A stretch of DNA of 63,760 bases, filler included, from Stramenopiles sp. TOSAG23-2 (taxonomy: Eukaryota), in NCBI GenBank assembly GCA_900128395.1. It is 8 parts of 8 records of this genome, joined end to end, with 100 filler letters (N's around TTAATTAATTAA, not from the genome) between each part and the next. Parts side by side here need not be neighbours in the genome. Positions count along the whole stretch, not along the records: positions 35,492 to 47,198 come from LT649907.1; 7 more parts are not named here. One strand, 5' to 3'. Position numbers and translations under genes: made by a program. Position 1 is the stretch's first letter, and each line of letters starts with the position of its first letter. The notes under the pieces were generated by a model that was given only the letters and a program-made list of their open reading frames with translations, ran no database searches and was not told the origin of the DNA. Shown one piece after another: positions 7,710-62,274 of the stretch.

Positions 7710-8276
7710 ATGGCACAACGTTATGAAATGTCAACGAATGCAGGGGGCAAGTTCTGGGAAGTAACAAATACAGGTTCAACATTATTAATTTCATATGGTG
7801 GAATAAATCGCGGAGCTCCAAGAAACTTGGAAAAGAAATACGATAGCGAAGAGAAGACTGCAAAAGAAATGGCAAAAATTATCAAACAAAAAATTGGAAA
7901 AGGTTATGCACTTGTTAGTGATAGCAGTAGTAGTAGTAGTAGCGGTAGTTCATCTAAACGTAAAATGACAACATCATCTGTATCAAAAAAAAAGAAAAAA
8001 CAAAAAAAATCGTCAAATAATAATAATTCCGAAAACCCCTTTTCAGAACATGTTTATATTTTAACTGGAACATTAAGTGTTTCACGTGCAAATATGGAAA
8101 ATGAAATTCGTGCAAATGGTGCAAAAACAGGGCCAGTCACACGAGCAACGCATTTATTACTTGGTACAAATGGAGAAGGTACAAGTAAATATGATAAAGC
8201 AGTTGAACGTGGTATACAAATTGTTGATGAAAAATATGTACGTAATTTTTTTACCGAAAATTCAAATAATAACAAC

Positions 8277-8309
<33 letters not shown>

Positions 8310-9116
8310 GGTGGCTGGGTTGCTCCTTTGCTTGCTAAAAAATATGAAGAAAAAAAAGATCCGAAAGGATGGTTAATGTCAGAAAAATTCGATGGACTTC
8401 GTGCAATTTGGGATGGGAAATTATTACATTCGAGAACAGGGAAACTTGAATTTGATGCTCCAACCTGGTTTACAGATGAATTACCTGCTAATTTTTATCT
8501 TGACGGTGAGCTATGGGCTGGAAAAGGAAAATTTGATGAAACTAATGGCATCGTCCGTCGTACAGGAAAAGCAAATCATGAACAATGGAAAAAATTAGGT
8601 TTGAGATATATGGTTTACGATGCCCCAGATCCAAGTTTAAAGGATGCAAAATTTGAAGATCGTATCTCAAAAATTAATGAATTGCTTTCAAAAAGTGATC
8701 CAAATATTGTTCATGCAGTTAAACATACAGTTTGTAAAGGCAAAGAAGATTTAATGAAAAAGCTTGACGCGATGGTAAAAAAAGGTGGAGAGGGTATTAT
8801 GATAAGAGAACCAGGCTCAAAATATGCTCATAAAAGATCTAGTACACTTTTAAAACTTAAAAAATTTCATGATGCTGAAGCAGAGATCATTGGCTATAAT
8901 GACGGAACAGGAAAATATTCTGGTATAGTAGGATCACTTCTTTGTCGAATGGATAAGACAAGTGGCAAAACATTTAAATGTGGTTCTGGTTTAACAGATG
9001 ATGACAGAAAAAATCCTCCGCCAATTGGATCTTTGATTACATATCGTTACCAAGAAACAACAAAAGATGGTGTTCCAAGATTTCCCACGTACGTACGTGT
9101 CCGTGAAAAAGAATAA
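7710..9116 (+). CDS. WGR-BRCT-fused ATP-dependent DNA ligase (minimal adenylation + OB core)
   Basis: WGR-like KFWEV...YG...KIGKGY; BRCT-like ILTGTL..SR...I...GA....VT..THLLLG.....SKY.KA...GI.IV.E; ligase motifs EKFDGLRA, LDGELW, YMVYD, EGIMIR and LLKLK; OB-fold end GVPRFP. Confidence 0.9.
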
Positions 9117-9688
9117 ATATGATTTTTCATATTTGTATGTGTCTTTATATATGTGCCATATATTTGATTATATTAAATTTTATATATGATATATTATATA
9201 TATATATATATATTGAGATATGGTACAATGTAAAAATTGAAAAAGGTTTTCCATACTAATATCTGTATAATTTTTTGAAAAAGTAAATGATGTACCAAAA
9301 ATTAAAAAGGAGACCAATATATTGCTTCGCGAGAGCTAAAGGCAACTAAATATTTAGTATGTGCTATACATTATAAAAAGAAAGAAGAGGCTTAATTTCT
9401 AAAATTTGGATTTATTTCTTTAATTTTGTCTTTCCTTTTACTTGAGATAATATTAAGTATAATTAATGCATAACTTATTTTTTAAATTTTACTCGTGATA
9501 ATTCCTACTCTCCAGAAAAGAAGACAATAACTGAGACAAATCTATCCCACTAAACTGAAAGATGGACAATGAATCGTAACAACTCGGTGTACTCGTATTA
9601 ATTACGAGTATAATAAAATATTTTATAGAGAGATATATTTTTTTTGTTTTTTTAAAAAGATTAATAAATAAATACTACGTGTATTTGT

Positions 9689-11412
9689 TTAGATACTCGC
9701 ATCTGCATCACGCTCTTTTTTCATATTCTCTTGGTTTTTAGTTTGAAGTTCCACACCGCCTGCTTTACTAACAGTACCACCACCAGCTTTATAACCACCA
9801 CCAGGTGGACCTTGACTAACAACGCGTTTATATCCAACGAATTTCAATAATACTAATGCTTCTAAAAATGAAGCTATTCCACCTAAAATAAATGCTAAAT
9901 GGCCAAATGTTCCATCTATGGTGTTGGAGTACAAAGGATAAACGGTGTCGTCTAATGTTAGAAAGATTTTCTAAATATAGTATATATATGAGGAATAAAG
10001 AGTTTGAACTTACATTTATGTTTTATCGCTAATACATCCGACATAAACAAAGGCCCTGCAACAATTGGTGCAATCGCTTTACCAACTGTTCCACCAGCAT
10101 TTAATAAACCTGTTGCTAAACCACGAATTTGTGGTGGGCAACTACGACCTAACAAAGTGCTTAAAATTGCCATTTGAAAACTATTACTAAATGATATAAA
10201 TATCATGAAATAAACATAATGAAGCCAATCAATATCAATAAATGTCCAACCGGCTTGACCAATACAGCCCATCAATGAACTAATAATTATCACCTTTTCT
10301 GGTCCTAACCATTTGACGCTTTGTTTTACTGAAACTGCCTGGTTAAAAATACCCCATACGCCAGCAATTGTTAAAAAGATCGCAACAGCGGTTGTCCCAG
10401 TATTGAATAGTGCCATCCATACCATTGCAAACATTGCAGTCATTTGAGAAAAGCTAAACCAATGCAAGAAATAGCAAAAACACAGTGCGTAGATGACGGT
10501 TGGTAATTTGGGTTTTTCCGGTTTGTTTCCATTCTGTGTATTCTTTGCTGCTGCTGCTGCCGCCGCCGCCGCTACTAAACGACCTTCTTCGGTATCATGC
10601 TTTGCTGCTTTTAACTTAATTTCCTCTATTATAATCGCAACTGGAACTTTTCTTTTGATTGCTTCAATGGCTGGATCTTGCGCACCACATATACCACCAT
10701 TTTTACTAGTTTCTTTCACGTTAAACCAAGCAACGCATTGTACAATCATTGCTACTACCGTCGGTGCAAAAAAGGCCGCACGTTTAGTTAAAATTGCAGC
10801 AACAAGCCCACCTAATGCTGGCCCAAACACAAATGCTACACCAATCATTGCGCCAGCAATTCCAAAATACTTTGGCCGTTCGCGGGGCGATACCGTATCC
10901 AATATCATAGCAGATACAACTGGTTGTGTCCCACCAAATAAACCAGACCATAGTCTTGCTAAATATAAATGTGTTAAATTTGGTGCTAATCCACACCATC
11001 CATATCCTAACGAACTTCCAAAAAGTGACACCATAACACAAACTTTTCGACCATATTTATCAGATAGTTTACCAAAAATAACACCCCCAAAGAATTGCCC
11101 AACCGCAAAGATGGATTGTAATAGACCGTAATCAACTGCAGTTCCACACTCAGGTATTCTTCCGCATCTATTATACGTTCCGTTTACAAAAGGTCCTGGC
11201 TCAGGACATGCTTTGGGACACTTTGGATCATTTGTTATCCAACCTAACTCCATGGTAAAGAAAGGTAATATCGGAATCGCGACGCCAAAACCTAAAAAAT
11301 CAACAAAGGAACATAAATATGCAGGCCATAAAACACTCCATGGACTTGGCACTTTTCCATTCTTTTTCTCATCACCGGTTGGTGGTTGAGGTTTGTCAGC
11401 TACGTTGGCCAT
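9689..11412 (-). CDS. MFS transporter (TetA/DHA1-like), two exons
   Basis: Motif A GKLSDKYGRK and antiporter motif C FVFGPALGG. GTAAGT donor at 10013; an acceptor at 9952 (or 9916) splices in frame into ORF 9689..9934, which supplies the last TM helix. Confidence 0.85.
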
Positions 11413-11740
11413 ATTTGCACGCAACTGTGTTTAATTTTGTAATAATATAAATTTATTAAAATTATGTAAAAAAAAAAAATATTACTTTTTTTTAAACTTA
11501 TATGGTATGGGGTTCTCTTCTTTTCTAAATAACTTTAATATTTTCAATGCTTGTAAAGATACTGTTGTTGATGATGATTCGCTATATATATATACATTTT
11601 CATATTTGTAAAAACGTTTTTAATCTGTTTTTTCTTTATTTCATTTAAATTTGAACATTGAAGGTTGGACACGCACACACCGTAATCCTTGTAAATAAGA
11701 CGGATGAAACTCTCCTAAAAACAGGCGTGGTCTAATTAGT

Positions 11741-11840
11741 NNNNNNNNNNNNNNNNNNNNNNNNNNNNNNNNNNNNNNNNNNNNTTAATTAATTAANNNN
11801 NNNNNNNNNNNNNNNNNNNNNNNNNNNNNNNNNNNNNNNN
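11741..11840. other. Artificial contig spacer
   Basis: N44-TTAATTAATTAA-N44 linker. Confidence 0.98.
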
Positions 11841-11991
11841 GATGATTCCTATCGGTAAAATGATGTGTGTGTGATGTTGATCCTCTCTCTCTGTTCGTGT
11901 GTGTGTGTGTGAGAAATCAATTTTATATATATAAAAGAAGATTTAAAATTTTAATATTAATTAATTAATTACCGATTCTTCACGTACATAT

Positions 11992-12156
11992 TAAGGAAAC
12001 AATTTCTTAAATCCGTCATACTATTTAAAAAATATATTAAGTGCATATATTTGTATACTAATATTTCTATCAAATTAAATAGTAATATTAATATACAGAT
12101 ATTTATACTTAATATATTTTTAAAAAAGCATGACGGATTTCAGAAATTTTTCCTTA
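11992..12156. repeat. Long imperfect palindrome (foldback or degenerate MITE)
   Basis: Arms of about 78 bp (TAAGGAAACAATTTCTTAAATCCGTCAT... and ...ATGACGGATTTCAGAAATTTTTCCTTA) around a loop of about 10 nt. Confidence 0.8.
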
Positions 12157-12441
12157 TTGTAAGATTTATATATATATAAATATTAATAACAATAAAACAG
12201 ATGAAATGTGATGTGTGTGTTAGTGAATAATAGATTATGATGTATATAATGTAATATAAATGGAAGAATCGTAATCTCGTAAAATTCGTTATATTATTAT
12301 TATTATTTATATATATAAAATTATTATTATTTGGAAAAACAAATATAGTGTGTGTATATATACGGTGTATGTGTAATTATTATTATTATTTATATATTAA
12401 TATAAATTCAAGATTGAAGAACTGTTTTCATTATATAAATC

Positions 12442-13128
12442 ATGTCAGCAATCACCTCTAAAGTAAAAGCTTTGTTTAATAATGGTAGAAAAATTGTATT
12501 GATACGACATTGCAAAACGAATAAAGCTGCAGAAGAAACTCCGGAAGCTGATAAAGCAAGGACTGCTAATGAAATTGGAAAAACCCAATGTGAAACTGCA
12601 CGTACAACTTATTTCAAGGATTTCTTATCAGCTGATGTAGTATGCCATACAGAGGCTGGACGGACAAAGGAAACTGCAGAGTTATTATTTAAAGATAAGG
12701 AATGTAAATTCCATACGATTTATAGTATGTATGGTGGTTTAAATTCGAAAACTGGTGAAATTAATTGTGAACCTATTGAAAATGCATTTTGGAAAAATGG
12801 ATATCAAAATGTTCAAGTGTATTTAGATTTAGTTGGTGAAGAACCTCTTCAAAAATATACAGACAATGTATTGAATGAAGTATTGAAAGTTTTTGATACA
12901 AATTCAATTCCAGAAGAAAATAATGATAAGCCTATAATATTTATATTACATGCGGTATATATAGCAGCATTGACACGATCGATTGCTAATTGTTTAGGTG
13001 ATGCTTTTCCAGCTGAAGCACGTAATTTGATTTTAACAACAAATGTTGGGGAAGTAAGTGGTTTTGTTTTGTCTAGTGAAGATATTAAATTTATTGGTTC
13101 GACTATAGAGCCAACTCTTCGAAGTTAA
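12442..13128 (+). CDS. Histidine phosphatase (phosphoglycerate mutase-like) superfamily protein
   Basis: IVLIRHCKT (RHG variant), R-T-x-E-T-A and the second catalytic His in FILHA. Confidence 0.75.
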   Translation: MSAITSKVKALFNNGRKIVLIRHCKTNKAAEETPEADKARTANEIGKTQCETARTTYFKDFLSADVVCHTEAGRTKETAELLFKDKECKFHTIYSMYGGLNSKTGEINCEPIENAFWKNGYQNVQVYLDLVGEEPLQKYTDNVLNEVLKVFDTNSIPEENNDKPIIFILHAVYIAALTRSIANCLGDAFPAEARNLILTTNVGEVSGFVLSSEDIKFIGSTIEPTLRS

Positions 13129-13342
13129 TTCTTCTAGAGATGCATATATAATATATCATAATTCTAAAGAAGGAATGAGAGAGGTTTGTATGTGTGAGGG
13201 GGGTAAATATAATACTCGTATTATAAATTATAATTGCCATCATAACTCGAACGCAAAAAAAATATATAATTTACCTCTCTACACTGGGGTTAAAAATAAA
13301 TGTAACATACCGCCACCACAAAAACCTATTGAAACCCTCTTT

Positions 13343-16300
13343 CTAAACTTTGTTAAAATGCTTGGAATAAAAGTCTTCATAATTTTCCTCTGTATCAACT
13401 GTATCTAATTGTCGTTGATATCCCTTCTTCTTTCTTCTCTTTTTCTGTTTTGTCTTTTTCGGTGGTGGTGGTGGTGCTGCTGCTGCTGCTGCTGTTGGCT
13501 TTCGTTGACCAAGCATAGGATTATTTGTCATTTCTATTATTTCACCATCTTCCCCTTCATTTAATTTTCTTGCTCCTTTGAAACTTGCTTGAAATCCGCG
13601 AAGGTCTCCTTTAAATGCATCAACTCGTTTTTTACACCAATATATAATAATTTCAACTAAAAGGATAACGCCTACGCCTACAACAATGCCTATGATAAAA
13701 GATTTATCGCGATAGGGTATACCAACACTTTCTAAAAAAGATCCATCACTACTATCGTCCGTTATATTAGAGGGAGGAAAAATTCCTCGGTCAGCTGGCT
13801 TGGATGCATTTGCAGAGCCGGGAATGCTGACAAGACAGCATGATTTTGTCTCCGTAATTGTCTTGCATATTTTGTTATCATCGTTGCAATATTGATATGA
13901 TCGAAAACATTGCGGCTGTTTTGATTCAGGATGCTCCCATATTTGGTATATATGAGCATAGCAAATACAGGTACAATGAAACTTGTTGCCCTCTTTTGGA
14001 GGATTAGGGGCTAATGGAGCTGTTGTCGTTGTTGTCACTTCTGAGGAAGATGTATTGGTACCTGGCGATGGAGTTGGTGGTATGGATATAGCAAGAGGAA
14101 TAATCTCGAATTCATTGGAATAGATATTTACATTCTCCAGCGATGTGGATTGCAAATATAAATAATAATGCTTTGAGTGTTTTAAACCACTGGTGATATC
14201 TGGAACTACCCAACTAAAATTTCCATTTGCGCTATTGATGGCACTTTCTGCCAAGATTGCATATTTTGTATCTCGGCCCCAATTATTAGTAAACAGTTCA
14301 ATAGAAACATGCGAGCCTGCATTAATGGACTCCCATGATACTTGAATCACATCTCCAGAGAAAAATCGTGCACCTGTGGTAGGCGTATTAATATTCAATT
14401 GATGTGGCAATGGGTTAATTGCAATTTTTTTGCTATTATCTGTGATCATTGCATCACTATTGGATGTAATTTGGATATAATAATGGGTGCTTCTTGAAAA
14501 TTCCGATCGTTGTGAAATAGAAAGACTTGCCGTTCCATTTTTTAACATTACATTATCAAGACTATCAATAATCGAATCTGTGAACCAACCATCTAGCATC
14601 AAGTCAATTTTCCCCGTTGTCCCAGGGTTTTCAGACACCCAATCAACTTCGATATCATCTCCTTCTTGAAACGATTCTCCTCCTGCAGGCTTGTTTATCT
14701 GAATGGAGTGAGGAACAGGTGAAATTTCAAATTTATTTGATCGAGATTCCAACTCGTAGCTTTCACCTTTATTTTTTATCATTATGTAATAATGTTTTGA
14801 ATGCGGTAGTCCATGCGATGGAATATTTAATGATGCTGATTTTAATGTTAGATCAACATCATCAACTGTTAAATAAACGCTGTCCGTAAACCAGTCATCA
14901 TCCATTAATAATAAAGTACCTAACGATCCAAAATTCTCCCCATCCCATTTTACACTCAATACGTCGCCTTCTTTAATGGATTCTCCACCGACAGGATTTG
15001 TAACTAATATCGTATGGGGGAGTGGCTTTATAATAAATGATTTACTATATGATATCAAATCATTGATCAAAATTGATTCAGCTTGAATGTAATAATGATT
15101 TGATTCTTGTAAATGTGGCACGATACATGTAAATGTATTTTGTCCCTCAATATTAACGGTTGAATCATTACACGATCCATACTTTGTATTATAAATCCAA
15201 CCATCCATGTATATATTCAATTTAATTTGCGGTCCAGCATTTTCACTATTCCATTTAATCACCATATTATCTCCTTCAATATAGCTTGCACCTTCCAGTG
15301 GCTCTAACACTTCAATCGAATGTGGAATTGGTGAAATTTCAAATTTATTTGATCGAGATTCCAACTCGTAGCTTTCACCTTTATTTTTTATCATTATGTA
15401 ATAATGTTTTGAATGCGGTAGTCCATGCGATGGAATATTTAATGATGCTGATTTTAATGTTAGATCAACATCATCAACTGTTAAATAAACGCTGTCCGTA
15501 AACCAGTCATCATCCATTAATAATAAAGTACCTAACGATCCAAAATTCTCCCCATCCCATTTTACACTCAATACATCGCCTTCTTTAATGGATTCTCCAC
15601 CGACGGGTTTTGTAACTAATATCGTATGGGGGAGTGGCTTTATAGTAAATGATTTACTATATGATATCAAATCATTGATCAAAATTGATTCAGCTTGAAT
15701 GTAATAATGATTTGATTCTTGTAAATGTGGCACAACACACGTAAACGTATTTTGCCCTTCTAAATTTGGTGCTGAATCACTGCATGATCCATACTTTGTA
15801 TTATAAATCCAACCATCCATGTAAATATTCAATTTAATTTGTGGCCCAGCATTTTCACTATTCCATTTAATCACCATATTATCTCCTTCATTATAACTGG
15901 CACCTTCCAGTGGCTCTAACACTTCAATCGAATGTGGGATTGGAGAAATTTCAAATTTATTTGACGTATCCCGTACAGATGTAAAACTATTTGATGTCAC
16001 TTTGAAATAATAATGTGAACTTTTTGGTAGATGAGCCGCAGGTAGATTGACCTGAAGCGTATTTTGTCCTTGTACAGACGCGGTATTATCTACACTCCAG
16101 TATAAAGTATCTGAAAACCAATCATCATCATAAAGTTCAATTTTTACGTTGTCTCCAATATTTTCTGCATTCCATGTGACTGATACAGTATCGCCTTCTT
16201 TGAACGATCGAGAGGTTGCTTGGGAGCCTAAACCTGACATAGAGACCTTCACTCCCCGTGCAAGATTGTTAATTTCGAATTCAAATGAATCATCTCTTGC

Positions 16301-23575: not shown

Positions 23576-23675
23576 NNNNNNNNNNNNNNNNNNNNNNNNN
23601 NNNNNNNNNNNNNNNNNNNTTAATTAATTAANNNNNNNNNNNNNNNNNNNNNNNNNNNNNNNNNNNNNNNNNNNN
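23576..23675. other. Artificial contig spacer
   Basis: N44-TTAATTAATTAA-N44 linker. Confidence 0.98.
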
Positions 23676-35391: not shown

Positions 35392-35491
35392 NNNNNNNNN
35401 NNNNNNNNNNNNNNNNNNNNNNNNNNNNNNNNNNNTTAATTAATTAANNNNNNNNNNNNNNNNNNNNNNNNNNNNNNNNNNNNNNNNNNNN
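35392..35491. other. Artificial contig spacer
   Basis: N44-TTAATTAATTAA-N44 linker. Confidence 0.98.
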
Positions 35492-36359
35492 CATTTTCTA
35501 TATAAGCTTGTATCACCTCTTTTCCCTTCGTTCCCTTCATTTCTTTCAAATAAGCAAAACATATTTCCCTATGCAAGGTGGTTCTGTAAATCAAGCATTT
35601 CATAAGATTTTCATCAATATCATTAATAAATAATAAAGCCAAGCCGTTCAAAATAAGTTCAATAGAAGGTATTTGGTTATACCGCATTAATAAAAAACCA
35701 GTTAGGATTATGCTCCATATCATTTCGACGAATTCTAAGAACACCCACATAATGGTTTTTTTTTTACTTGAAGTTGATATTATTATTCCTGAATAATAAT
35801 AATGATGAAAAAAACTAACTAATATTTTTACTTCAACATATCCACAAAAGAATAAAAAAAGAAAATAAAAAAGAACATCTTGCAAGAAAAATTTAATATA
35901 GTCTCCCATAGTTAGGTCATCTTTTGTTTCCACGACGCTGAATGTATTAATTTGATGTGTTGTGTTGTATGAAATATTGCCTACCCTGAAACCGTGTTCG
36001 TGATATTCCACTCTGGACCAATAACGATTTTCCTCCATGTCACCATCAGCTATAAGTGAAACATAAAGAAACATAGCTAGCTCTACAACTTTAATTGCAT
36101 AAGCGCTAATTCGAATGGACAAAGGCAGTTTTTTAGGGCAAAATAAAATATCATAAGCCCCAAGGTCTTCATCTTTCATATGCTCTTCATATATAATTTC
36201 AAGCTTGCTTCTTTTTTCTATTAGATCATATTTCTCTTGTATTTTTTCCATGAACTTTTTAAATAAGTCTGCCTCAGCATCACTTAAAACAATAGATTTT
36301 TCTTCAGTAGCCGAAGTTGCTTCGCCTATTAAGTTAGTTTCTGGAACAATTTTAGACAT
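35492..36359 (-). CDS. Multi-pass membrane protein, 3'-truncated by contig end; looks cellular rather than viral
   Basis: About four TM segments and the motif ELILNGLALLFINDIDE; the ORF runs into the gap. Confidence 0.65.
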
Positions 36360-37952: not shown

Positions 37953-38696
37953 TTAAAAAGATTTTAATTTAAATGTATAATAATTATTTTTTTTTTTACT
38001 AAATGTGATAAACACATAACGTCCATACCATCTTTTATCATTTACTATATGTTGAGATTGAATGTACCAACCTAATTGATTCATTTGATTTAATCTACGA
38101 GGAGTAAAAGTATTCATAGTTGATAAATTTATTAACCAAAAGATACCTTTAGTTGATATATTCATTGCTTTAAGATGAAAACGCCAGAATAATTTACGTG
38201 GCACAAACGGAGGATTTCCAATGATGTATTGAACTTTTGATTTGTAATGAAAAAAATTGCGACCTTTGTTTAATTCACACCAATCTTTTTCTACATAAGA
38301 TGGTAAATTATTATAAAAAGCTCCGTTGCCCATGCATGGATCTAAGATAATATCATTTTCTTTAAAATTACATCTTTTGATTAAATGTTTTGCCATTTTT
38401 TCATTGGTATATACAAACGTTTTATCGAATTTATTAATTAATATTCCTAGATTGTCTAATTTATCCTTTTTATAATCCCAAATTTTCTTTTTATCATACG
38501 TAAAATCATGCATCATCTTTAAATAATATATAGCTTGTTGATAGTTTTTTTGTTTGACAACATCTTTTAATGTAGCATGTTCCAACTCTTTATTTAATTG
38601 ACGTATTTTATGAAATTCCAAATATTCATAAGCTTTTTTATAGTTTTTTTGTTTAACTATATCTTTTAAAGTTATATTATCCATTTCTGTATTCAT
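37953..38696 (-). CDS. DNA amino-methyltransferase (N6-adenine type) no. 1
   Basis: FVYTN (motif X-like), IILDPCMGNGAF (SAM-binding motif I) and IIGNPPF (catalytic motif IV). Confidence 0.88.
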   Translation of the reverse strand: MNTEMDNITLKDIVKQKNYKKAYEYLEFHKIRQLNKELEHATLKDVVKQKNYQQAIYYLKMMHDFTYDKKKIWDYKKDKLDNLGILINKFDKTFVYTNEKMAKHLIKRCNFKENDIILDPCMGNGAFYNNLPSYVEKDWCELNKGRNFFHYKSKVQYIIGNPPFVPRKLFWRFHLKAMNISTKGIFWLINLSTMNTFTPRRLNQMNQLGWYIQSQHIVNDKRWYGRYVFITFSKKKNNYYTFKLKSF

Positions 38697-38933
38697 TTTA
38701 TCTTGTATAATATATGGATGTTATTATTTTGCAATTTTTATATGATTATTTGTATGTATGTATATATTTATATACGGTATAATTATAACATTACGAAAAA
38801 TAAATAGCACTAATTTTACTATTTATTATTCAATTTTCACAAAAAAACATATATTCATAAAGATAAAATAATAATAATAATAATAATAACATGAAACATA
38901 AAAAAGATATAAAGAAAACAAAAAATCAATAAA

Positions 38934-39620
38934 ATGGATAAATATTCATTAAAACAAATAAAAGAAAAAGGTTTATATGAAGAAGCCAAATCTTTTTTAG
39001 AAGCAAAACATCTGGAACAAATAAAAAATGAATTATTCGATAAAAGTTTAAAAGAAATAGCCAGATCTAAACGATATGAAGATGCTAAACTAATATTATT
39101 TGCTGAAATATTACAAACAAAAAATGAGTTTTACACACCGAAAGAAGCTTTTCAACAAATAAATCATTTTATACCGAAAGATAAGACAATATGGGAACCA
39201 TTTACAATGGGAAATCACAAATGTATAGAAAGTCCAACCTATTTACGAGAACTAGGTCATAAAGTTATAGCGACAGGCGAGAATTTTTTTACATGTTCCT
39301 ATGGTGATATTGTTGTCAGTAATATACCTTTTTCCACACCAAAGGGCACACCAAATATAAAGATGCGGATATTAAAGCGTTTGGTATTTTTAAAAAAACC
39401 ATTTTTATTACTAGTCCCAATACAATTTTTACAAACAAGAGAGATTAAAATGTTTCAACAAAAATATGGAGAGATTCAATTATTAATTCCGTGTGATAGA
39501 ATTAAATTTTATTATTATATAAATAAAAAGCGACACCAATATGCACACCCAAACAACCATCATATTTGTTGTTGGATTTGTTGGAAAATGAATTATGAGC
39601 GAGACGTGTATTTTTTGTAA
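38934..39620 (+). CDS. DNA amino-methyltransferase no. 2, variant catalytic motif NIPF
   Basis: EFYTPK, TIWEPFTMG, GENFF, DIVVSNIPFS and KPFLLLVP motifs. Confidence 0.82.
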   Translation: MDKYSLKQIKEKGLYEEAKSFLEAKHLEQIKNELFDKSLKEIARSKRYEDAKLILFAEILQTKNEFYTPKEAFQQINHFIPKDKTIWEPFTMGNHKCIESPTYLRELGHKVIATGENFFTCSYGDIVVSNIPFSTPKGTPNIKMRILKRLVFLKKPFLLLVPIQFLQTREIKMFQQKYGEIQLLIPCDRIKFYYYINKKRHQYAHPNNHHICCWICWKMNYERDVYFL

Positions 39621-39773
39621 AATAATATGTAGATAGCATTAGGATCCATTTTTCTGATTTTTTTTTACTTAATAATTTATTATATATATACCACAAATAT
39701 ATATATATGCATAGATAGATAGATAAACATATATGCACATGTTTATAAATAAAAATAAAAGTAAAAACACAAA

Positions 39774-40457
39774 ATGGAATCTTATTCATTAAAACAAATA
39801 AAAGAAAACGATTTATATGAAGAAGCTAAGTCATTTTTAAAAACAAAACATCTGGAACAAATAAAAAATGAATTATTCGATAAAAGTTTAAAAGAAATAT
39901 GTAGATCCAAAGAGTATAAACCTGCACTTTATATATTAAAAGAATACATGCTACGTGAAAAAAATGAATACTATACAAACAAAGATACGTTTGAAAAGAT
40001 TAACCATTTAATACCAAAAAATAAAATAATATGGGAACCATTTACAATGGGAAACCACAAATATATCGAAAGTCCAACATATTTACGAGAACTAGGTCAT
40101 GAAGTTATAGCAACAGGCGAGAATTTTTTTACATGCAACTATGGTGATATCGTAGTTAGCAACATGCCTTTTAACCAACATATGGGTGAAGAATCGATAA
40201 AGGTACGAATTATTAAACGTTTAATAAAAATGAATAAGCCCTTTATGCTTTTGGTTCAAAGTAATTTTATTCAAACAAAAGTATTTAAAACTATACGTGA
40301 TAGACACAGACATTTTCAATTTATACTTCCTAGCTACAAAGTGAGTTATCACAGAAAAGATTTACATGGGGATAAAGTAAAACTGAGTGTTCCAAATTTT
40401 TATAGTTCGTGGATCTGCTGGAAAATAAATTTGGCTGCTGATGTGATTTTTGTGTAA
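39774..40457 (+). CDS. DNA amino-methyltransferase no. 3, paralog of no. 2, variant catalytic motif NMPF
   Basis: EYYTNK, IIWEPFTMG, GENFF, DIVVSNMPFN and KPFMLLV; 39844-39899 is identical to 39004-39059. Confidence 0.82.
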   Translation: MESYSLKQIKENDLYEEAKSFLKTKHLEQIKNELFDKSLKEICRSKEYKPALYILKEYMLREKNEYYTNKDTFEKINHLIPKNKIIWEPFTMGNHKYIESPTYLRELGHEVIATGENFFTCNYGDIVVSNMPFNQHMGEESIKVRIIKRLIKMNKPFMLLVQSNFIQTKVFKTIRDRHRHFQFILPSYKVSYHRKDLHGDKVKLSVPNFYSSWICWKINLAADVIFV

Positions 40458-40488: not shown

Positions 40489-40989
40489 TTATTTTTTTAT
40501 CATAGCCTGTGATGCGGACGTAAGCGCACTATTAATACTTACACCTCCCTGTGGCATCCAACCTTCAGCTATTTTCTCCTCAACTAGGAAAGCCAGTTGC
40601 TTGTAGAGAAGCGGCTCAATAAATTCATTACCTGGTGCATATCTATATATTCCTCCTGTGCTCTTTTCTAAAACAGGCAGTCCTTTTGCTAGATTTTTTA
40701 TCTCTTCATAAGTTAGATCAGGTTTTGTCTGTACTCCCCCAAATACAGGAGCTTTTGGTTTTTTTTGGAGTTCTTGTTGATATAGTGCATATAACCGTTT
40801 ATAATTATCAGCAGCTTTCTTATATTCATCTGTTTCCAATACATCAGACCTAGATGCCCTAACTATAATATATTTCTGATGAGGAGCGGTAATGTGTACT
40901 GAACTGTCTGCATGGACAGGAACTGTATTGATTGAGTAATATATCCACACTAAAACACACAAAAAAGCAGCTAAAATGTATTTCATCAT
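40489..40989 (-). CDS. Membrane-anchored protein with DUF1737-like C-terminus
   Basis: N-terminal hydrophobic helix; C-terminal VEEKIAEGWMPQGGVSI...QAMIK pattern. Confidence 0.55.
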   Translation of the reverse strand: MMKYILAAFLCVLVWIYYSINTVPVHADSSVHITAPHQKYIIVRASRSDVLETDEYKKAADNYKRLYALYQQELQKKPKAPVFGGVQTKPDLTYEEIKNLAKGLPVLEKSTGGIYRYAPGNEFIEPLLYKQLAFLVEEKIAEGWMPQGGVSINSALTSASQAMIKK

Positions 40990-41326: not shown

Positions 41327-41998
41327 ATGGATTATATTAGTAATATATTATCAAAATGTTTTAAACATAATGTAGATTTAAGTTATGAACGTATAAAAAA
41401 ATGGTTCATCCCTGTAAGAAACTGTATTATGTTTTTTATCATGTGTGAAGTTATTATTATCATGTGTGACTCCGTGGCAGACAAGTTTTGTAAAATACAA
41501 ATACAGTGGTCTGTATGGTGGTTGTTATCGTGGTTTAACAAAAAAGATGGAAACTTATGTTATTACGTTCGTAAAATCCCATTGGATGTAATAACTGCAA
41601 GAAACAATTATTTTTGGGAAATAATTTCACTATGGTTTGCGTTCATCACCACCACTTTATGGAATAACTCTCATGCAGTTTATAACCACAATAAAACTAT
41701 CACATCACAGGAGTTAGAAAATTTTAAAGATTTTCCATTAATGAAAAATGTCACAACACAAGTGTATGCAGTTTGGGATATTCCTGGTTTAAAAGCTGGA
41801 GTGTATTTAAATTATAATGATATTGAAACATTTCATAAAAGGAAAGGAAAAGAATTCGGGGACTATCATGGAGTTCGGAGTTATAACTCTAAAAATTGTG
41901 GGGGTGATTTATTAAGAACAGTAAAAACAGCAGAGGAAAAAGTAAAGGATGAGTTAAGAGTAAAGAATATTCCACATTTGCGTATAAAAAAAGAATAA
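41327..41998 (+). CDS. Hypothetical membrane protein, C-terminus weakly like the RNase H1 N-terminal/viroplasmin domain
   Basis: Hydrophobic segments in the N-terminal half; VYAVW....KAGVYLNY.D pattern. Confidence 0.5.
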   Translation: MDYISNILSKCFKHNVDLSYERIKKWFIPVRNCIMFFIMCEVIIIMCDSVADKFCKIQIQWSVWWLLSWFNKKDGNLCYYVRKIPLDVITARNNYFWEIISLWFAFITTTLWNNSHAVYNHNKTITSQELENFKDFPLMKNVTTQVYAVWDIPGLKAGVYLNYNDIETFHKRKGKEFGDYHGVRSYNSKNCGGDLLRTVKTAEEKVKDELRVKNIPHLRIKKE

Positions 41999-42671: not shown

Positions 42672-45602
42672 ATGTATAGGATGGAAAATTATTGGAAAAT
42701 CGAGAAAAACACCAGTCAATTATTTAGTAAATTTGCTATTTTGCATGAACCTCTGAATCTTGAAAATTTAGAGTTGCTTTTAAGATCCAACTACAACTGC
42801 ACATACGATGATAAAGAATGGCTAGAACAGTTCAATGTCCCATTTGATAATGTGCGGGACCATTTAAAAAAGCTAAAATCTAAAGTGAGGAATGGACATT
42901 TAGAAACAAATGCAAGTATTAAAGATGGGTATGGTAGAGCCACATACAAAGGGCATATATCACTGTGTATGTTAAAATCTGAAATACGACAAGCTTTATC
43001 TATAGAGACAAGCACTGATTATGATATAAAAAATTGCCAACCACATATTTTATATGAAATTTGTAAAAAAATGATAAAGAAAAAAAACAAAAAAGAATAT
43101 ACTAAATTAAAAAGTTATTGCACAAAACGTGATAAATGGTTAAGCACATTAGCCGAAAGCTTTTTTAATGAAGATACAAAAGAGAATAGAGGAAAAGTAA
43201 AAGTTGGAATTATTAGAATGTGCTTTTTTGGCGGATCTATCTCAAAATGGTTTAATGAAAATAATGTAGATATGGATAAAAATGGTGATGTGTATCAATT
43301 AAAAAAAGAAGTGGATGCCATAGTGGATAAATATATTATTCAAAATAATTACAAAATATTTGAGGAGATAAAAAAAGAAAAAGAACAAGAGTATAATGAC
43401 AAGATGAAATATTATAAAAAAAATAGAAAGAAAAAACCACATCTAAAACAACCGATAAAGAAAGATCCAAAAAGCACATTAATAAGTAAATTCTTACATG
43501 AATATGAACGTAAGTGTGTTGAAGCAGTATTACTGGAACTAATGAGACGTGGCAAAATAAAAAAAAATGAATTTATTTATTGCTATGATGGATTTCAGAT
43601 AAAAAATAATATAGATGTCAGAGTAGAAGAATTGGAAAGAATTGTAAAGGATAAAGTTGGACTAGAAGTAAGATTTGATATAAAGAATTGTGCAGATGGG
43701 GAAAAAGTTATGCAAGAAGTGAATGAATTAATAAAAGCTATGGAACCCTCAGAAAAAAATCAGTATGAGTTTGATCCAGACTATTTTAAAAGTATAGACG
43801 ATTGTTTTGAAATGCAATGTTGGTATTGGAATAAATTTTTCTGTTTTACAGAAATGGAAGGAATTTATTGGTACCGGGATAAAATACCGAAAAATAATCC
43901 AGAAACAGGAAAAACACAAATGGTTAATAAAGTCACAGAATACAGTCCAAATAAATTTAGAGATTCCTGGAGGCACTATAAAACAATAAAGGTTGATAAA
44001 AATGGTAATAAAGACGCAAAAATTTTTATAGATAAGTGGAAGGATGACTTAGATTATTTTAATTCCTACAAATTACAAAATTTTTTACCAGAAAATAAAC
44101 CGTTGAGGTTATTAAATCATGACAAGTCTATATATAATATTTTTCAAGGTTATCCAGATTTTTTATTTTCAGATGCACAACTGGAAAATTATGACAAAAA
44201 TGTAAAGTTCTTTCTACAATTTATTTCCAACTTAGTAGGTAATACTGAAGCGTGTGAGCAATTAACACACTTAATTGGATATAAGATAAAATATCCCGGA
44301 CGTAAAAAGCCTTATGGTATAATAATAAAAGGACTTCAAGGTGAAGGTAAGAATTTTTTACTATACTTAATTTCGAAAATAATAGGTGAAGACCATTATT
44401 TTACTTCCAGCAATATAGATGATATAGCTGGAACCCATGCAACAGGTATCGAGGGGAAATTAATTATAAACCTAAATGAGATGGATTTAAGCTCAACAAA
44501 AGATAAAACAAATTTGATGAAAAGTCTTATTAGTGAAAATGTAATAAATGTTAATAAAAAATTTGTGAATCATTATAAAGCGTATAATTTTGCATTGTTT
44601 ATTGTGACCTCTAATGAAACACTACCAATTATGATAGATATGATGACAGGTGATAGAAGATGGTTTGTTTTTGAAGGTAATGGAGAAAATACAAAACTGG
44701 ATGACAGAACATGGGATTATTTGTGGGGACTATGTGAAGATCTAAATTTTTTACGTTGTATTTATAAATACTTTATGGGTTTAGATTATAATGCTTACAG
44801 TTTTAAAGAAGCTAAACGACAAAATAGTTTAAGTAAAGCATATGCAAAAATGGCTTCATATTTTATACCATATGAGTTGCTATTTTTAAAAGATTTTTTT
44901 ATCAATAATAGATTTTTAATGCAAAAATATGGAGAAAATTATGATGATGAACGTCTTTATTATAAATTTGATGCTTTTTATGAAAAAATGGAAATCGAAG
45001 TAGCAGATATGTGCAGGGAATTTTGGGAATGGAGTGAAAATAATAGAGTGGCATTGGGTCAAAGTAAAAACACAAAAGCATTAAAGAATAAGCTAATGTC
45101 ATTTAATTTCAGAGAATTTACAACATTTCTTGATAATAAAACTAGACGAGTAAAGTTACGGTTTTATCCATATTTAGTAATGAAAGACTTAATTAGTAAA
45201 AAAGCTTTTGATAGTGCAGATATGGAAAAATGGCGAGAAACAGATTTGAAATCTAACAATAATAAAAAAAGTAATATAAATGATATTTTAGAATTTTGTA
45301 AAAGTCAGCCAGAAATCGAACCAACTACAATCAAAACTAAGGTAAAATCCACTCTAAAGCCAAAGGTGAAACGTAAGATAAAATCCAGATGTAAAAAAAC
45401 AATTGCAAGTGAGAATAAATCTACTACTAATAATAAAGTGCAAAACAAGGTAAAATCCACTAATAACATTACTATAAAAATAGCAAATTCTGAAAATGTA
45501 GAACATTGTCCAACTTGTAAAGAACCATTTGGAAAATGTGATAATGAATATAATGGTTGTTATAAATTTTATGAAAAACAACAAGAAATATTACAACGAT
45601 AA
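42672..45602 (+). CDS. PolA-family-like primase-polymerase (TVpol-like) fused to superfamily 3 helicase
   Basis: PolA-like motif A DYDIKNCQPHIL, motif B RGKVKVGIIRMCFFGG and motif C IYCYDGF; SF3 Walker A GLQGEGKN, Walker B IINLNE, motif C FIVTSN and arginine finger GDRRWFV. Confidence 0.85.
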   Translation: MYRMENYWKIEKNTSQLFSKFAILHEPLNLENLELLLRSNYNCTYDDKEWLEQFNVPFDNVRDHLKKLKSKVRNGHLETNASIKDGYGRATYKGHISLCMLKSEIRQALSIETSTDYDIKNCQPHILYEICKKMIKKKNKKEYTKLKSYCTKRDKWLSTLAESFFNEDTKENRGKVKVGIIRMCFFGGSISKWFNENNVDMDKNGDVYQLKKEVDAIVDKYIIQNNYKIFEEIKKEKEQEYNDKMKYYKKNRKKKPHLKQPIKKDPKSTLISKFLHEYERKCVEAVLLELMRRGKIKKNEFIYCYDGFQIKNNIDVRVEELERIVKDKVGLEVRFDIKNCADGEKVMQEVNELIKAMEPSEKNQYEFDPDYFKSIDDCFEMQCWYWNKFFCFTEMEGIYWYRDKIPKNNPETGKTQMVNKVTEYSPNKFRDSWRHYKTIKVDKNGNKDAKIFIDKWKDDLDYFNSYKLQNFLPENKPLRLLNHDKSIYNIFQGYPDFLFSDAQLENYDKNVKFFLQFISNLVGNTEACEQLTHLIGYKIKYPGRKKPYGIIIKGLQGEGKNFLLYLISKIIGEDHYFTSSNIDDIAGTHATGIEGKLIINLNEMDLSSTKDKTNLMKSLISENVINVNKKFVNHYKAYNFALFIVTSNETLPIMIDMMTGDRRWFVFEGNGENTKLDDRTWDYLWGLCEDLNFLRCIYKYFMGLDYNAYSFKEAKRQNSLSKAYAKMASYFIPYELLFLKDFFINNRFLMQKYGENYDDERLYYKFDAFYEKMEIEVADMCREFWEWSENNRVALGQSKNTKALKNKLMSFNFREFTTFLDNKTRRVKLRFYPYLVMKDLISKKAFDSADMEKWRETDLKSNNNKKSNINDILEFCKSQPEIEPTTIKTKVKSTLKPKVKRKIKSRCKKTIASENKSTTNNKVQNKVKSTNNITIKIANSENVEHCPTCKEPFGKCDNEYNGCYKFYEKQQEILQR

Positions 45603-45640: not shown

Positions 45641-46360
45641 TTATTGTTTTTCTAAATTGTTATCAATTTCGATTTTGTTAAAACAGCACCTATATTGTAA
45701 GGCAGGGTGCTTAGCATCACAGTCAATAAACAGGAAGTCATACGGTTTTTTAGTATATTTTTTAAATTTTTTTATAAATTCTACTTTTTCTAAACCACAA
45801 CCAATATCTGAATATAGTAAATTTATTTCTTTTTTCGATGGAACAGCAAACAGCGATATATAATTACAATTTACTCTAATCACTCTAGGAATGGAAGACC
45901 ATCTTTGCCCTAAAAAACAAACACTACAATTTTTATGTCTAGATCTTACAAAATAATCTATCATGGGTGTTTGATTGGAATCTAGTAAAAAATCATCAAA
46001 TATTACAAGATTTTGGACATTTCCATCTAATTCATCAACTGGAACTACATCATCCAGACTATTACTCATAAATAATATCTCCTCTTCAGTTTTTTCTTGA
46101 ATTTTTTCAAACATATCTTTAATTAATTGAAACTTAGGTTGATTTAGGTGTTTTGAATATATATACAACCGGTCAAAACTCAAAAGCCTACAAATACTCC
46201 AGCAGATTAAATTACTTTTTCCAGATCCACTGGAACCATTAATAATCCAGCGAAAACCACCATTTTTATGCTGTGGCACAAGGCTACTTTTATTTCTACC
46301 TTTTTTATTGCCTTTAATACGCTTTATGTTATCACAATTTCCAATATCTAGCTTCACCAT
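45641..46360 (-). CDS. A32-like (FtsK-HerA) DNA packaging ATPase
   Basis: Walker A INGSSGSGKS, Walker B LVIFDD, RSRHKNCSVCFLGQ, IRVNCNY and KPYDFLFID, the pattern of Polinton/PLV/virophage packaging ATPases. Confidence 0.92.
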   Translation of the reverse strand: MVKLDIGNCDNIKRIKGNKKGRNKSSLVPQHKNGGFRWIINGSSGSGKSNLICWSICRLLSFDRLYIYSKHLNQPKFQLIKDMFEKIQEKTEEEILFMSNSLDDVVPVDELDGNVQNLVIFDDFLLDSNQTPMIDYFVRSRHKNCSVCFLGQRWSSIPRVIRVNCNYISLFAVPSKKEINLLYSDIGCGLEKVEFIKKFKKYTKKPYDFLFIDCDAKHPALQYRCCFNKIEIDNNLEKQ

Positions 46361-46396
46361 TCTTTATATATATATTTATTTAGAGAATTTTCTAAA

Positions 46397-46450
46397 TGAT
46401 TTAATTATTTTTTTTTATGATTTAATTATTTTTTTTTATGATTTAATTAT
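46397..46450. repeat. 21-bp tandem repeat (about 2.6 copies) in a divergent promoter
   Basis: ATGATTTAATTATTTTTTTTT unit between the ATPase start (46360) and the next start (46454). Confidence 0.8.
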
Positions 46451-46453
46451 ATA

Positions 46454-47198
46454 ATGGTTAAACAAGATTTTAGAAAAATCCAAAATTTATCTGAATTCGA
46501 AAAATTAGTGAATTCATTTACAGAGGAAAGGCAAAATTTAAAACAACGTGTCATGGAAGAAAAAGGTATATCAGAAATTTCTGAATTAGATATTGAAAAA
46601 AAAGCAGCACCAGTGGTTAGGGCAATCGAAGGATTGAAACAAGACTTAAAACCAACACGAACATACTTCCAAATGTTTGAAAATCAAGCAAATACCTCTG
46701 GTAAAAAGGTCACTGAAGTAAAAGCACAAAGAGTTAGTGGAAAAGTTATACAAAAATTAGGCACAAATGGTATTGTGGAAATAGATGCACTAAAAGAAAA
46801 TCGAATAAGTATTATAAATGTGCGAGATCCACAAAATAGAGTGATTAATATTAATCTTACACCAGGTTTAGGTGAATTGGTATTTAAAAAGTATCAAGAT
46901 ATTAATAATGATGTTATAAGCAGAAATGACTGGATTACATTTTGGAATATTATGAATTATACTGACTTTCCTAGACGAGCTTTAGGTAGAAATAGAAAAT
47001 TAATTAGGGCAAATCAAATATTTAATAACATGCCCCAACAACCACAACAACCACCACCACCAGCACCACCAGCACCTCCACAACAACAACCGCCTGGACC
47101 AGCACCACCTGGACCATTTGGACCAAATCCTCCATTCCCACCTAATAATAATAACAATAATAATAACAATAATAATAACAATAATAATAACAATAATG
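46454..47198 (+). CDS. Maverick/Polinton-type conserved protein, 3'-truncated, with Pro/Gln and poly-Asn tract
   Basis: N-terminal coiled coil ending IEKKAAPVVRAI and motif LTPGLGELVFKK......SRNDWITFWNIMNYT, which resembles a protein I recall from animal Mavericks. Confidence 0.6.
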
Positions 47199-47298
47199 NN
47201 NNNNNNNNNNNNNNNNNNNNNNNNNNNNNNNNNNNNNNNNNNTTAATTAATTAANNNNNNNNNNNNNNNNNNNNNNNNNNNNNNNNNNNNNNNNNNNN
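47199..47298. other. Artificial contig spacer
   Basis: N44-TTAATTAATTAA-N44 linker. Confidence 0.98.
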
Positions 47299-59002: not shown

Positions 59003-59102
59003 NNNNNNNNNNNNNNNNNNNNNNNNNNNNNNNNNNNNNNNNNNNNTTAATTAATTAANNNNNNNNNNNNNNNNNNNNNNNNNNNNNNNNNNNNNNNNNN
59101 NN
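59003..59102. other. Artificial contig spacer
   Basis: N44-TTAATTAATTAA-N44 linker. Confidence 0.98.
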
Positions 59103-60588: not shown

Positions 60589-60688
60589 NNNNNNNNNNNN
60601 NNNNNNNNNNNNNNNNNNNNNNNNNNNNNNNNTTAATTAATTAANNNNNNNNNNNNNNNNNNNNNNNNNNNNNNNNNNNNNNNNNNNN
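60589..60688. other. Artificial contig spacer
   Basis: N44-TTAATTAATTAA-N44 linker. Confidence 0.98.
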
Positions 60689-62174: not shown

Positions 62175-62274
62175 NNNNNNNNNNNNNNNNNNNNNNNNNN
62201 NNNNNNNNNNNNNNNNNNTTAATTAATTAANNNNNNNNNNNNNNNNNNNNNNNNNNNNNNNNNNNNNNNNNNNN
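62175..62274. other. Artificial contig spacer
   Basis: N44-TTAATTAATTAA-N44 linker. Confidence 0.98.

Follow-up and report, generated by a model that had tools for sequence, protein, structure and literature searches.

Three adjacent genes on a partial contig of Stramenopiles sp. TOSAG23-2 (GCA_900128395.1; LT649907.1), one of eight pieces joined in a 63,760-nucleotide (nt) stretch of DNA (the window), encode small methyltransferases (MTases), which we call MT1, MT2, and MT3. Our favored explanation, held with moderate confidence, is that a small virophage or polinton-like virus (PLV) here encodes three functional orphan S-adenosylmethionine (SAM)-dependent amino-MTases, that these most likely modify DNA at adenine N6, and that they act at probably three different sites and jointly mark the viral genome. 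All three genes are under purifying selection, among them the two whose catalytic motif IV departs from NPPF. We infer the DNA substrate, the distinctness of the specificities, a protective role, and the role of an N-terminal module shared by the three proteins. Methylation would shield the genome from restriction-type nucleases that co-infecting giant viruses or other elements carry, and/or serve as a self mark.

Gene arrangement and tandem duplication

MT1 (37953–38696, minus strand; 247 amino acids) is divergent from MT2 (38934–39620, plus strand; 228 amino acids) and MT3 (39774–40457, plus strand; 227 amino acids), which are tandem paralogs. MT1 consists of an "A1-type" minimal amino-MTase core (amino acids ~70–247) preceded by an N-terminal extension, and MT2 is an "A3-type" minimal amino-MTase, distantly EcoRI-methylase-like, that also has an N-terminal extension. 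All three proteins match phrog_799 "DNA methyltransferase" (E 9.5e-17, 1.4e-13, and 1.3e-12 for MT1, MT2, and MT3, respectively), over profile positions ~205–370 of 458. A sub-threshold N6_N4_Mtase match was found for MT1 in Pfam-A. An initial annotation made from the sequence had described three adjacent MTases, one divergent from a tandem pair, and the open reading frames (ORFs) and profile matches bear out this description.

The tandem duplication (38909–40258, plus strand) has a period of 840 nt, with 38909–39085 corresponding to 39749–39925 and 39119–39418 to 39959–40258. It contains an exact run of 56 nt (39004–39059 and 39844–39899), which confirms the identical blocks noted initially. 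MT2 and MT3 are 58% identical (133/229, E 5e-95), and this identity is unevenly distributed: it is 93% in codons 91–120, 13–33% in codons 151–210, and 13–47% in the C-terminal halves. The pair diverges after motif IV, as the initial annotation had stated. The likeness of MT1 to MT2 is confined to the first ~50 residues (33% identity, E 1e-6).

Statements about the neighborhood of these genes apply only to the partial 11,707-nt contig at 35492–47198 of the window. No nuclease family was matched among its nine other ORFs (Pfam, PADLOC), in keeping with the earlier remark that no nuclease is recognizable nearby. Restriction enzymes are often not recognizable from sequence.

Protein families and predicted fold

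MT1 is a member of one minimal MTase family of ~178 amino acids and MT2 and MT3 are members of another of ~165 amino acids, both common on virus-sized metagenome contigs. Of 531 candidates, 145 were homologous to the MT1 core at E≤1e-3 and, with few exceptions, are ~178 amino acids in length and lack the first ~68 residues of MT1; in a 52-sequence alignment of this family, NPP is invariant and F nearly invariant. MT2 had 465 homologs at E≤1e-3 and 114 at E≤1e-10 in a 50%-representative library, mostly of ~160–175 amino acids and starting at about residue 60 of MT2. Profiles of the two families align with each other over motifs I–IV only (95% probability, 48 columns).

When MT2-family members were scanned singly against Pfam, 39 of 71 matched EcoRI_methylase (PF13651; E≤0.01, best 1.3e-9), with fewer matching Eco57I (7/71), Dam (5/71), and N6_Mtase (5/71). 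MT2 and MT3 themselves gave no PF13651 match at E≤1, and their link to EcoRI_methylase is transitive only. The 52 MT1-family members scanned gave scattered weak Pfam matches only. Models of rRNA-adenine dimethylases or other RNA MTases in Pfam were matched neither by the three proteins nor by these 71 + 52 relatives. The motifs follow the gamma-type order, with DPCMGNGAF ~40 amino acids before NPPF in MT1 and WEPFTMGN ~40 amino acids before N(I/M)PF in MT2 and MT3, and no domain in between.

The structure model of MT2 had a predicted local distance difference test (pLDDT) value of 93 and a predicted template modeling (pTM) score of 0.85. Its core (amino acids 63–228) was most similar to lmo1582 (2f8l; Z 10.9, root mean square deviation (rmsd) 2.8, 147 aligned), M.TaqI (Z 10.7), and METTL5 (Z 10.5), followed by DIMT1, KsgA, and ErmC' (Z 10.0–10.3). 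In the MT1 model, the core had pLDDT >90 and the N-terminus was poorly defined. The MT1 core was similar to ErmC' (Z 15.4, rmsd 2.3, 139 aligned) and M.TaqI (Z 14.5), with Trm14 and METTL5 falling within 14.5–15.4. The proteins are predicted by these models to adopt the Rossmann-like class I MTase fold. Sequence searches of the PDB with single proteins and family profiles gave no meaningful MTase match. In BFVD, 23 matches were found at E≤1e-3, mostly to small phage proteins, and the named ones were mostly DNA or N6-adenine methyltransferases; the best structural matches were phage MTases of 130–260 amino acids. The BFVD matches also included a "PCIF1 WW domain-containing protein" of CroV and of Tetraselmis virus (E 8.8e-4 and 2.8e-3, respectively).

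Motif IV variants

Alignments place motif IV at residues 161–164 of MT1 (N161 P162 P163 F164; 38205–38216, minus strand), where it is NPPF, and at residues 130–133 of both MT2 (NIPF; 39321–39332, plus strand) and MT3 (NMPF; 40161–40172, plus strand). The strict motif (D/N/S)-P-P-(Y/F/W) is present in MT1 and absent from MT2 and MT3, in which the first proline is replaced by different residues, as originally observed. NIPF is kept in the MT2 ortholog (P0121, on metagenome contig L121) and NMPF in the MT3 ortholog (on contig L122).

Of 218 MT2-family sequences, 22 have a second residue other than proline, in the form N-x-P-(F/Y/I) with x being I, L, M, C, or S. On a FastTree tree built after removal of the trait column, this state requires no fewer than 14 changes, a count that tree error can inflate. 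As a tree-independent check, the nearest relatives of L078/L084 (NIPF), L111 (NLPF), and L058 (NMPF) have NPPF at 70–80% identity. Every member of the clade formed by MT2, MT3, P0126, and the MT2 and MT3 orthologs has N(I/M)PF, which indicates one old replacement of proline and then a single ATA/ATG difference. The initial annotation had called these motifs diversifying; I and M are one nucleotide apart and each is kept in the orthologs, so the motif is instead fixed. NIPF and NMPF would be working variants of motif IV that arose from one ancestral proline replacement plus the I/M change.

Passages on Erm enzymes describe a "conserved NIPY motif" that lines the adenine pocket (PMC9386465), and in wild-type human DIMT1, N128-L-P-Y131 is described as contacting SAM (PMC8463865). 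Because of these motifs, a hydrophobic second residue is compatible with adenine-N6 methylation. A pseudo-catalytic partner, which had been suggested initially, is disfavored by the recurrence of N-[I/L/M/C/S]-P-[F/Y] in the family and by the native occurrence of N(I/L)PY in Erm and DIMT1, as reported in those passages. In this DNA-MTase-like family, the non-canonical N-I/M-P-F is recurrent and selected rather than a sign of decay, which is of use in the annotation of MTases from virophages and PLVs, where these enzymes are very abundant.

Motif III is N-F-F in MT1 (amino acids ~146–149), MT2 (39276–39290), and MT3; the family consensus is D-F-(F/L). The MT1 ortholog has D-F-F, and N-F-F also occurs in P0125, which has NPPF. 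From this comparison, D and N seem interchangeable at motif III.

Orthologs and purifying selection

A metagenome scan with MT2 alone found nothing, and a second scan with an alignment (A6) found the contigs L121 (4,144 nt) and L122 (1,855 nt). L121 carries, in order, a K/E-rich ORF, an MT1 ortholog on the opposite strand (86% identical, NPPF), an MT2 ortholog (79%, NIPF), and the first 85 residues of an MT3 ortholog that runs off the contig end. L122 carries the remaining 150 residues of an MT3 ortholog (amino acids 78–227; 87%, NMPF), followed by an ortholog of a 166-amino acid ORF. The order and orientation of the triad and flanking ORFs are the same in L121/L122 as in the contig studied here. 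The two MT3 pieces may come from two variants, judging from their sequences, and were analyzed separately.

Ratios of nonsynonymous to synonymous divergence (dN/dS) were determined by the Nei-Gojobori method between the three genes and their orthologs, with a Fisher test against neutrality. The dN/dS was 0.14 for MT1, 0.145 for MT2 (0.11 for its core), and 0.11 for the C-terminal part of MT3 with NMPF (p<1e-14 for each). For the N-terminal piece of MT3 (amino acids 1–85, L121), it was 0.31. The NIPF and NMPF copies, for which the initial annotation had allowed for neutral decay as duplicates, are not evolving neutrally. Synonymous divergence (dS) between the paralogs is patchy, being ~0.24 in codons 1–30 and 91–120 and ~2 elsewhere.

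The spacer between MT1 and MT2 is 237 nt in length here (38697–38933) and 740 nt in L121 (2305–3044), where it holds an extra acidic/basic ORF of 124 amino acids (2551–2925) that is absent from the contig studied here. MT3 and the orthologs of MT2 and MT3 share a sequence of the form CACATGTT(T/G)ATAAA(A)TAAAAATAAAA, located ~15–45 nt ahead of their start codons (39725–39773; L121 before 3045 and 3890). Looser ACATG...ATAAAA versions precede MT2, the 166-amino acid ORF, and the extra ORF of L121. This upstream sequence may be a common promoter element.

Segments that separate MT2 from MT3

The two paralogs differ in a loop after motif IV and in a variable β-hairpin formed by amino acids 181–212 of MT2 (39474–39569, plus strand; strands 193–196 and 199–202 in the model; MT3 counterpart ~40314–40403). 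Over motifs I–IV, identical residues number 42/45 between MT2 and MT3, 40/45 between MT2 and its ortholog, and 42/45 between MT3 and its ortholog. The corresponding values are 6/15, 11/15, and 14/15 for the loop, and 4/30, 24/32, and 27/31 for the hairpin. Since the paralogs differ in two segments that the orthologs keep, the duplication predates the split of the two elements, that is, the split from the relative represented by L121 and L122, with each copy having kept its own loop and hairpin.

These variable segments are located where one would expect a small MTase to contact its substrate. We infer that the loop and the hairpin are candidate specificity determinants and that the copies recognize different sites. 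The multi-specificity system proposed in the initial annotation stands to this extent: there are three intact, selected genes for MTase-fold proteins, and the paralog differences conserved in orthologs fit several specificities; the pseudo-catalytic part of the proposal did not hold up. The pair provides a clean natural case of duplication followed by divergence in two short candidate specificity segments, in a minimal MTase of ~165 amino acids that has no target-recognition domain. With the three specificities mapped, these minimal enzymes could show how little protein suffices for sequence-specific adenine methylation, and which restriction pressures operate between the small and giant viruses of marine protists.

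A shared N-terminal module

All three proteins start with two units of ~34 amino acids, each made up of a short and then a long helix. In MT1, these two helix-turn-helix repeats are at 38478–38696 (minus strand; repeat hidden Markov model at amino acids 15–47 and 48–81 of the stop-to-stop frame). In MT2, they are at 38934–39122 (plus strand), with helices at residues 6–12, 15–34, 39–44, and 48–63 (pLDDT 88–97), and the MT3 counterpart is at 39774–39962. A profile of the unit, run on all ORFs of the window, 120 metagenomic loci, and 270 fetched proteins, matched nothing but the N-terminal ends of these MTases and of a few relatives. The module is present in just 2 of 171 MT1-type sequences, namely MT1 and its ortholog. 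Among MT2-type sequences, 19 of 238 have at least 30 residues before the core, and ~8–9 of these show the repeat by eye: MT2, MT3, P0121, P0122, P0123, P0126, P0128, P0132, and perhaps P0124. The module is under purifying selection (dN/dS 0.10 in MT1 and 0.30 in MT2, in the ortholog comparison).

Similarity between paralogs and orthologs forms a mosaic. Over the first 135 nt, the paralogs within an element are 89% (here) and 95% (L121) identical, as compared with 81% between the orthologs of MT2 and 89% between those of MT3. Beyond this stretch (nt 136 onward), it is the orthologs that group together (84–90%, versus 62–73% for paralogs). This pattern points to gene conversion over the N-terminal module, which would homogenize it in MT2 and MT3. 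On the simplest reading of these sequences, the module is native to the MT2 lineage and MT1 acquired it as a copy, its own 5' end being turned toward MT2 with the 237-nt spacer in between; MT1 appears, in other words, to have captured it from the MT2/MT3 lineage. At the DNA level, the two repeats of the MT1 module (D6; 38521–38599 and 38620–38698) are 73% identical with a spacing of 99 nt, a higher similarity than an old internal duplication would lead one to expect.

A word-based homolog search with module residues 1–62 gave nothing at E≤0.01, and a profile search of the PDB gave nothing at E<1. The best ESM Atlas feature matches (0.83) were unnamed clusters of 31–39 amino acids, below the useful range. 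Comparison with Pfam gave sub-threshold Sel1/TPR/ANAPC3 matches for the MT1 copies only (2/6 sequences, best E 0.0036). The module of 2 x 34 amino acids is the only feature of the three-gene cassette for which we found no precedent, the homolog, profile, feature, and Pfam searches having given nothing above threshold, and together with its mosaic of gene conversion and divergence it is the most original aspect of the cassette. Possible roles are a DNA clamp, an oligomerization domain, or a targeting domain. A speculative and rather unlikely elaboration is that the module serves as an addressing or assembly domain that brings the three MTases to one place (the virion, the factory of a helper giant virus, or each other) as a "methylation kit", and that N(I/M)PF may alter the chemistry toward a second methylation or RNA, as in Erm, KsgA, and DIMT1.

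Multiple methyltransferases in related loci and known systems

The frequency of such clusters was determined in 120 IMG/VR loci fetched through either MTase family, within ±10 kb. A single MTase of the two families was found in 103 loci, two in 15, three in one (L108), and none in one. The loci with two MTases include tandem MT2-type pairs (L078/L084 and L090), a convergent MT2-type pair (L112), and adjacent MT1-type and MT2-type genes (L043 and L092). The L078/L084 pair combines NPPF with NIPF. P0139 (372 amino acids, 5'-partial) fuses two MT2-type domains, with NPPF in the first and NLPF in the second; such true double-domain fusions number 1 among 150 listed representatives. L108 is a virophage as judged by its Sputnik-type major and minor capsid genes. 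Its segments at 5591–9237 and 10781–13779 hold a Sputnik-type major capsid protein, a penton, a D5-like helicase, two tandem MT1-type MTases, and one MT2-type MTase.

Among 632 PLVs and virophages, "over half" are stated to encode a DNA MTase (Bellas & Sommaruga 2021, PMC7805220), and a passage of a 2026 preprint on a PLV framework states that some PLVs encode "three or more" (10.64898/2026.06.19.733378). The initial annotation had held that its proposal would be refuted if triads were routine in described PLVs. This is partly the case, given that statement in print and the three MTases of L108; the shared module was seen only here and in relatives. The cassette belongs to a described kind, the multi-MTase virophages and PLVs. 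It resembles their orphan MTases, as presented in passages of those two sources, in the context of a small double-stranded DNA (dsDNA) virus with an A32 ATPase and a primase-helicase, in having no recognizable nuclease, and in having several MTases. Both of its MTase families also occur on IMG/VR contigs. It differs in bearing a common module of 2 x 34 amino acids on enzymes of two families.

MT2 and MT3 resemble M.EcoRI-like gamma-class enzymes (PF13651) in having motif I before motif IV without an insert, an NPPF-type motif IV, and an N-terminal D/N-E-Y/W-x-T-P motif. They differ in falling below the PF13651 model and in having I or M as the second residue of motif IV, and their cores of ~165 amino acids are about half the size of M.EcoRI. 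The small orphan adenine MTases of phages (PF05869 Dam, phrog_799) are similar in that phrog_799 is matched by all three proteins and PF05869 by 5/71 relatives; here, in contrast, the contigs are of eukaryotic virus type, a helical module is added at the N-terminus, and only part of phrog_799 is matched. The likeness to Erm, KsgA, and DIMT1 lies in a hydrophobic residue in place of the first proline (N-[I/L]-P-Y in passages of PMC9386465 and PMC8463865) and in fold similarity of the cores (Z ~10 for MT2 and 14–15 for MT1). The cassette motif, however, ends in F rather than Y, there is no sequence-family match, and the models have no further C-terminal domain; the motif likeness is probably a convergent tolerance at one position. 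Giant viruses such as chloroviruses, pandoraviruses, and CpV-BQ2 likewise have several MTases without cognate nucleases, according to passages in PMC7253447 and PMC6459981. These have large genomes with many unrelated MTases, whereas here three minimal enzymes occupy ~2.5 kb and two of them come from a tandem duplication.

Weighing of alternative explanations

Several results weigh against the explanation of three site-specific DNA MTases that mark a viral genome. Pfam-A gave nothing relevant for MT2 or MT3, NCBIfam gave no match for any of the three MTases, and Foldseek found no match in the PDB at E≤1e-3. The fold matches tie DNA and RNA amino-MTases, with ErmC', KsgA, DIMT1, METTL5, and Trm14 level with M.TaqI, and DNA is assigned as the substrate because of the sequence families. 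No separate target-recognition domain is identifiable, since the models end with the last Rossmann strand, which leaves the variable hairpin and the N-terminal helical module as the only recognition candidates. Cores of ~165 amino acids are far smaller than the characterized sequence-specific gamma-class enzymes. The dN/dS between MT2 and MT3 is 0.25–0.39, a rough value with dS near saturation, and the MT3 pieces of L121 and L122 differ at one residue within their 8-amino acid overlap. A cognate nuclease could lie off the partial contig. The protective role would be carried over to virophages by analogy with giant viruses, and Zamilon vitis, the sole virophage in a giant-virus methylome survey, is described in passages of that survey as having no MTase and as unmethylated (PMC7253447).

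One alternative, which we judge unlikely, is that MT2 and MT3, possibly with MT1, form a single hetero-oligomeric enzyme, in which the paralogs would divide an asymmetric site between them, by strand or by half, or one subunit would be mainly structural, with the module acting as the assembly domain. Consistent with this are the fusion of NPPF and NLPF domains in the single chain of P0139, the NPPF/NIPF combination of the L078/L084 pair, a module kept alike by gene conversion and acquired by the unrelated MT1 core, and the faint sub-threshold matches of the MT1 module to Sel1/TPR-type repeats, which are protein-binding. But both paralogs keep all catalytic motifs at dN/dS ~0.11–0.15, and neither looks like a dead scaffold; family members are also mostly single (103/120 loci, and the one fusion among 150 listed representatives). 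That no longer fused forms of MT2 were found is weak evidence on the same side. Prediction of an MT2-MT3 complex gave a score of 0.24 (mark 0.34), which we used neither for nor against binding. It is also possible, and we regard it as quite unlikely, that some or all of the enzymes act on RNA (rRNA or cap-adjacent mRNA adenosine) or on another amino group, with an N(I/M)PF pocket of the Erm/KsgA/DIMT1 type that might allow dimethylation. The RNA enzymes among the tied top fold matches (Z 10–15), the PCIF1-named matches in CroV and Tetraselmis virus, the lack of a target-recognition domain, and the description of N-[I/L]-P-Y as the motif of adenine dimethyltransferases in passages of PMC9386465 and PMC8463865 would fit such a substrate. 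The relatives, however, belong to DNA MTase families (EcoRI_methylase, Eco57I, Dam, and phrog_799), no RNA MTase model was matched, and the best BFVD matches are small phage MTases. Erm and KsgA, moreover, carry a further C-terminal domain after the Rossmann fold, at which the models of MT1 and MT2 end.

Protection from giant-virus or host nucleases, as proposed in the initial annotation, would accord with passages in which orphan MTases of giant viruses are read as protection against the restriction systems of co-infecting agents (PMC7253447, PMC6459981). A non-defensive function, in which methylation would regulate the transcription, replication, or packaging of the element itself or mark self versus host or helper DNA, for example, seems improbable to us. 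No cognate nuclease is present on the contig, an upstream sequence is shared by MT3 and the MT2 and MT3 orthologs, and regulatory or packaging roles are discussed for orphan MTases of bacteria and phages, with transcriptional regulation raised for PLVs (passages of PMC7253447 and 10.64898/2026.06.19.733378). Against this, methylated motifs of giant viruses were described as not enriched intergenically, and the authors favored protection (PMC7253447, in the passages concerned); several accumulated specificities are also the pattern expected for anti-restriction. Our data do not directly separate a defensive from a non-defensive role. Far less probable still is that MT2 and MT3 are redundant or decaying duplicates inactivated by their altered motif IV. 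The strict (N/D/S)PP(Y/F) is indeed broken in both, and their C-terminal halves have diverged strongly. Yet the ORFs are intact here and, as far as the contigs reach, in L121/L122, the ortholog dN/dS is 0.145 and 0.11 for the two genes (p<1e-14 against neutrality), the divergent segments are kept between orthologs, and the same replacement recurs in the family.

Contig and gene context

The eight pieces of the window are joined in order of descending length (11,740, 11,735, 11,716, 11,707, 11,704, 1,486, 1,486, and 1,486 nt), with an N44-TTAATTAATTAA-N44 spacer at all seven joins (11741–11840, 23576–23675, 35392–35491, 47199–47298, 59003–59102, 60589–60688, and 62175–62274). ORFs that span joins (e.g., 35436–36359 and 46454–47254) are artefacts at spacer ends. 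The contig with the three MTase genes is incomplete, with partial ORFs at both ends, and has a guanine plus cytosine (GC) content of 27.8%, versus 32–37% for the other seven pieces. Genes for a protein kinase, a histone deacetylase, an MFS transporter, and RapGAP/RGS proteins sit on other pieces and are therefore uninformative on integration of this contig. A scan of repeats and composition in the contig revealed no junction, terminal inverted repeat, or GC step, and integration of the element into a host genome is neither shown nor excluded.

The contig encodes an A32-type packaging ATPase (45641–46360, minus strand; 239 amino acids; PF04665 Pox_A32, E 9.5e-7, 29 bits versus a cut-off of 22.8), as is characteristic of virophages and PLVs. 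It also encodes a primase-helicase-like protein of 976 amino acids (42672–45602, plus strand; PF19263 DUF5906, E 2e-15, above cut-off). Virophages and PLVs also have double jelly-roll major and minor capsid proteins; no capsid model was matched by any scanned ORF of the window, and this contig is a fragment. The element is probably a small virophage- or polinton-like dsDNA virus and could be either of the two, the partial contig being without a capsid gene. No relatives of its A32 ATPase were found in IMG/VR, and a longer genome of the element was therefore not recovered.

Further ORFs on the contig include one of 351 amino acids rich in K, E, and D and one of 223 amino acids (41327–41998, plus strand) with no Pfam match at E≤1. 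The C-terminal part of the latter (VYAVWD...GVY...) may resemble the hybrid-binding motif of the RNase H1 N-terminus and caulimovirus viroplasmin. The K/E-rich ORF was considered as a nuclease and rejected, its Endonuclea_NS_2 match (E 0.013) being below cut-off and in a low-complexity tract. The A32 ATPase gene and the ORF that follows it are divergent, and the spacer separating them holds three 21-nt tandem copies of ATTTAATTATTTTTTTTTATG-type (46378–46450).

Short near-identical contigs (0–2 differences over 143–247 nt) cover parts of all three MTase genes in runs X2 and X3, which are labeled viral metagenome. Contigs from RNA libraries were found on MT1 (X7, two of 151 nt, each showing 0 differences) and on the K/E-rich ORF (X9). 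DNA can be present in an RNA library, so these contigs do not prove transcription, and uncovered parts carry no meaning.

The 166-amino acid ORF (40489–40989, minus strand) adjoins MT3, has a hydrophobic N-terminus, and has the highest GC content on the contig. Compared with its ortholog (L122 490–987, minus strand), its dN/dS is about 1.0 and its dS only 0.10, as against dS values of 0.5–0.9 for the neighboring genes. An antisense ORF of 72–76 amino acids is open in both copies (40635–40853 of the window; L122 621–851). This pattern might reflect recent exchange, positive selection, or a constraint acting on the opposite strand.

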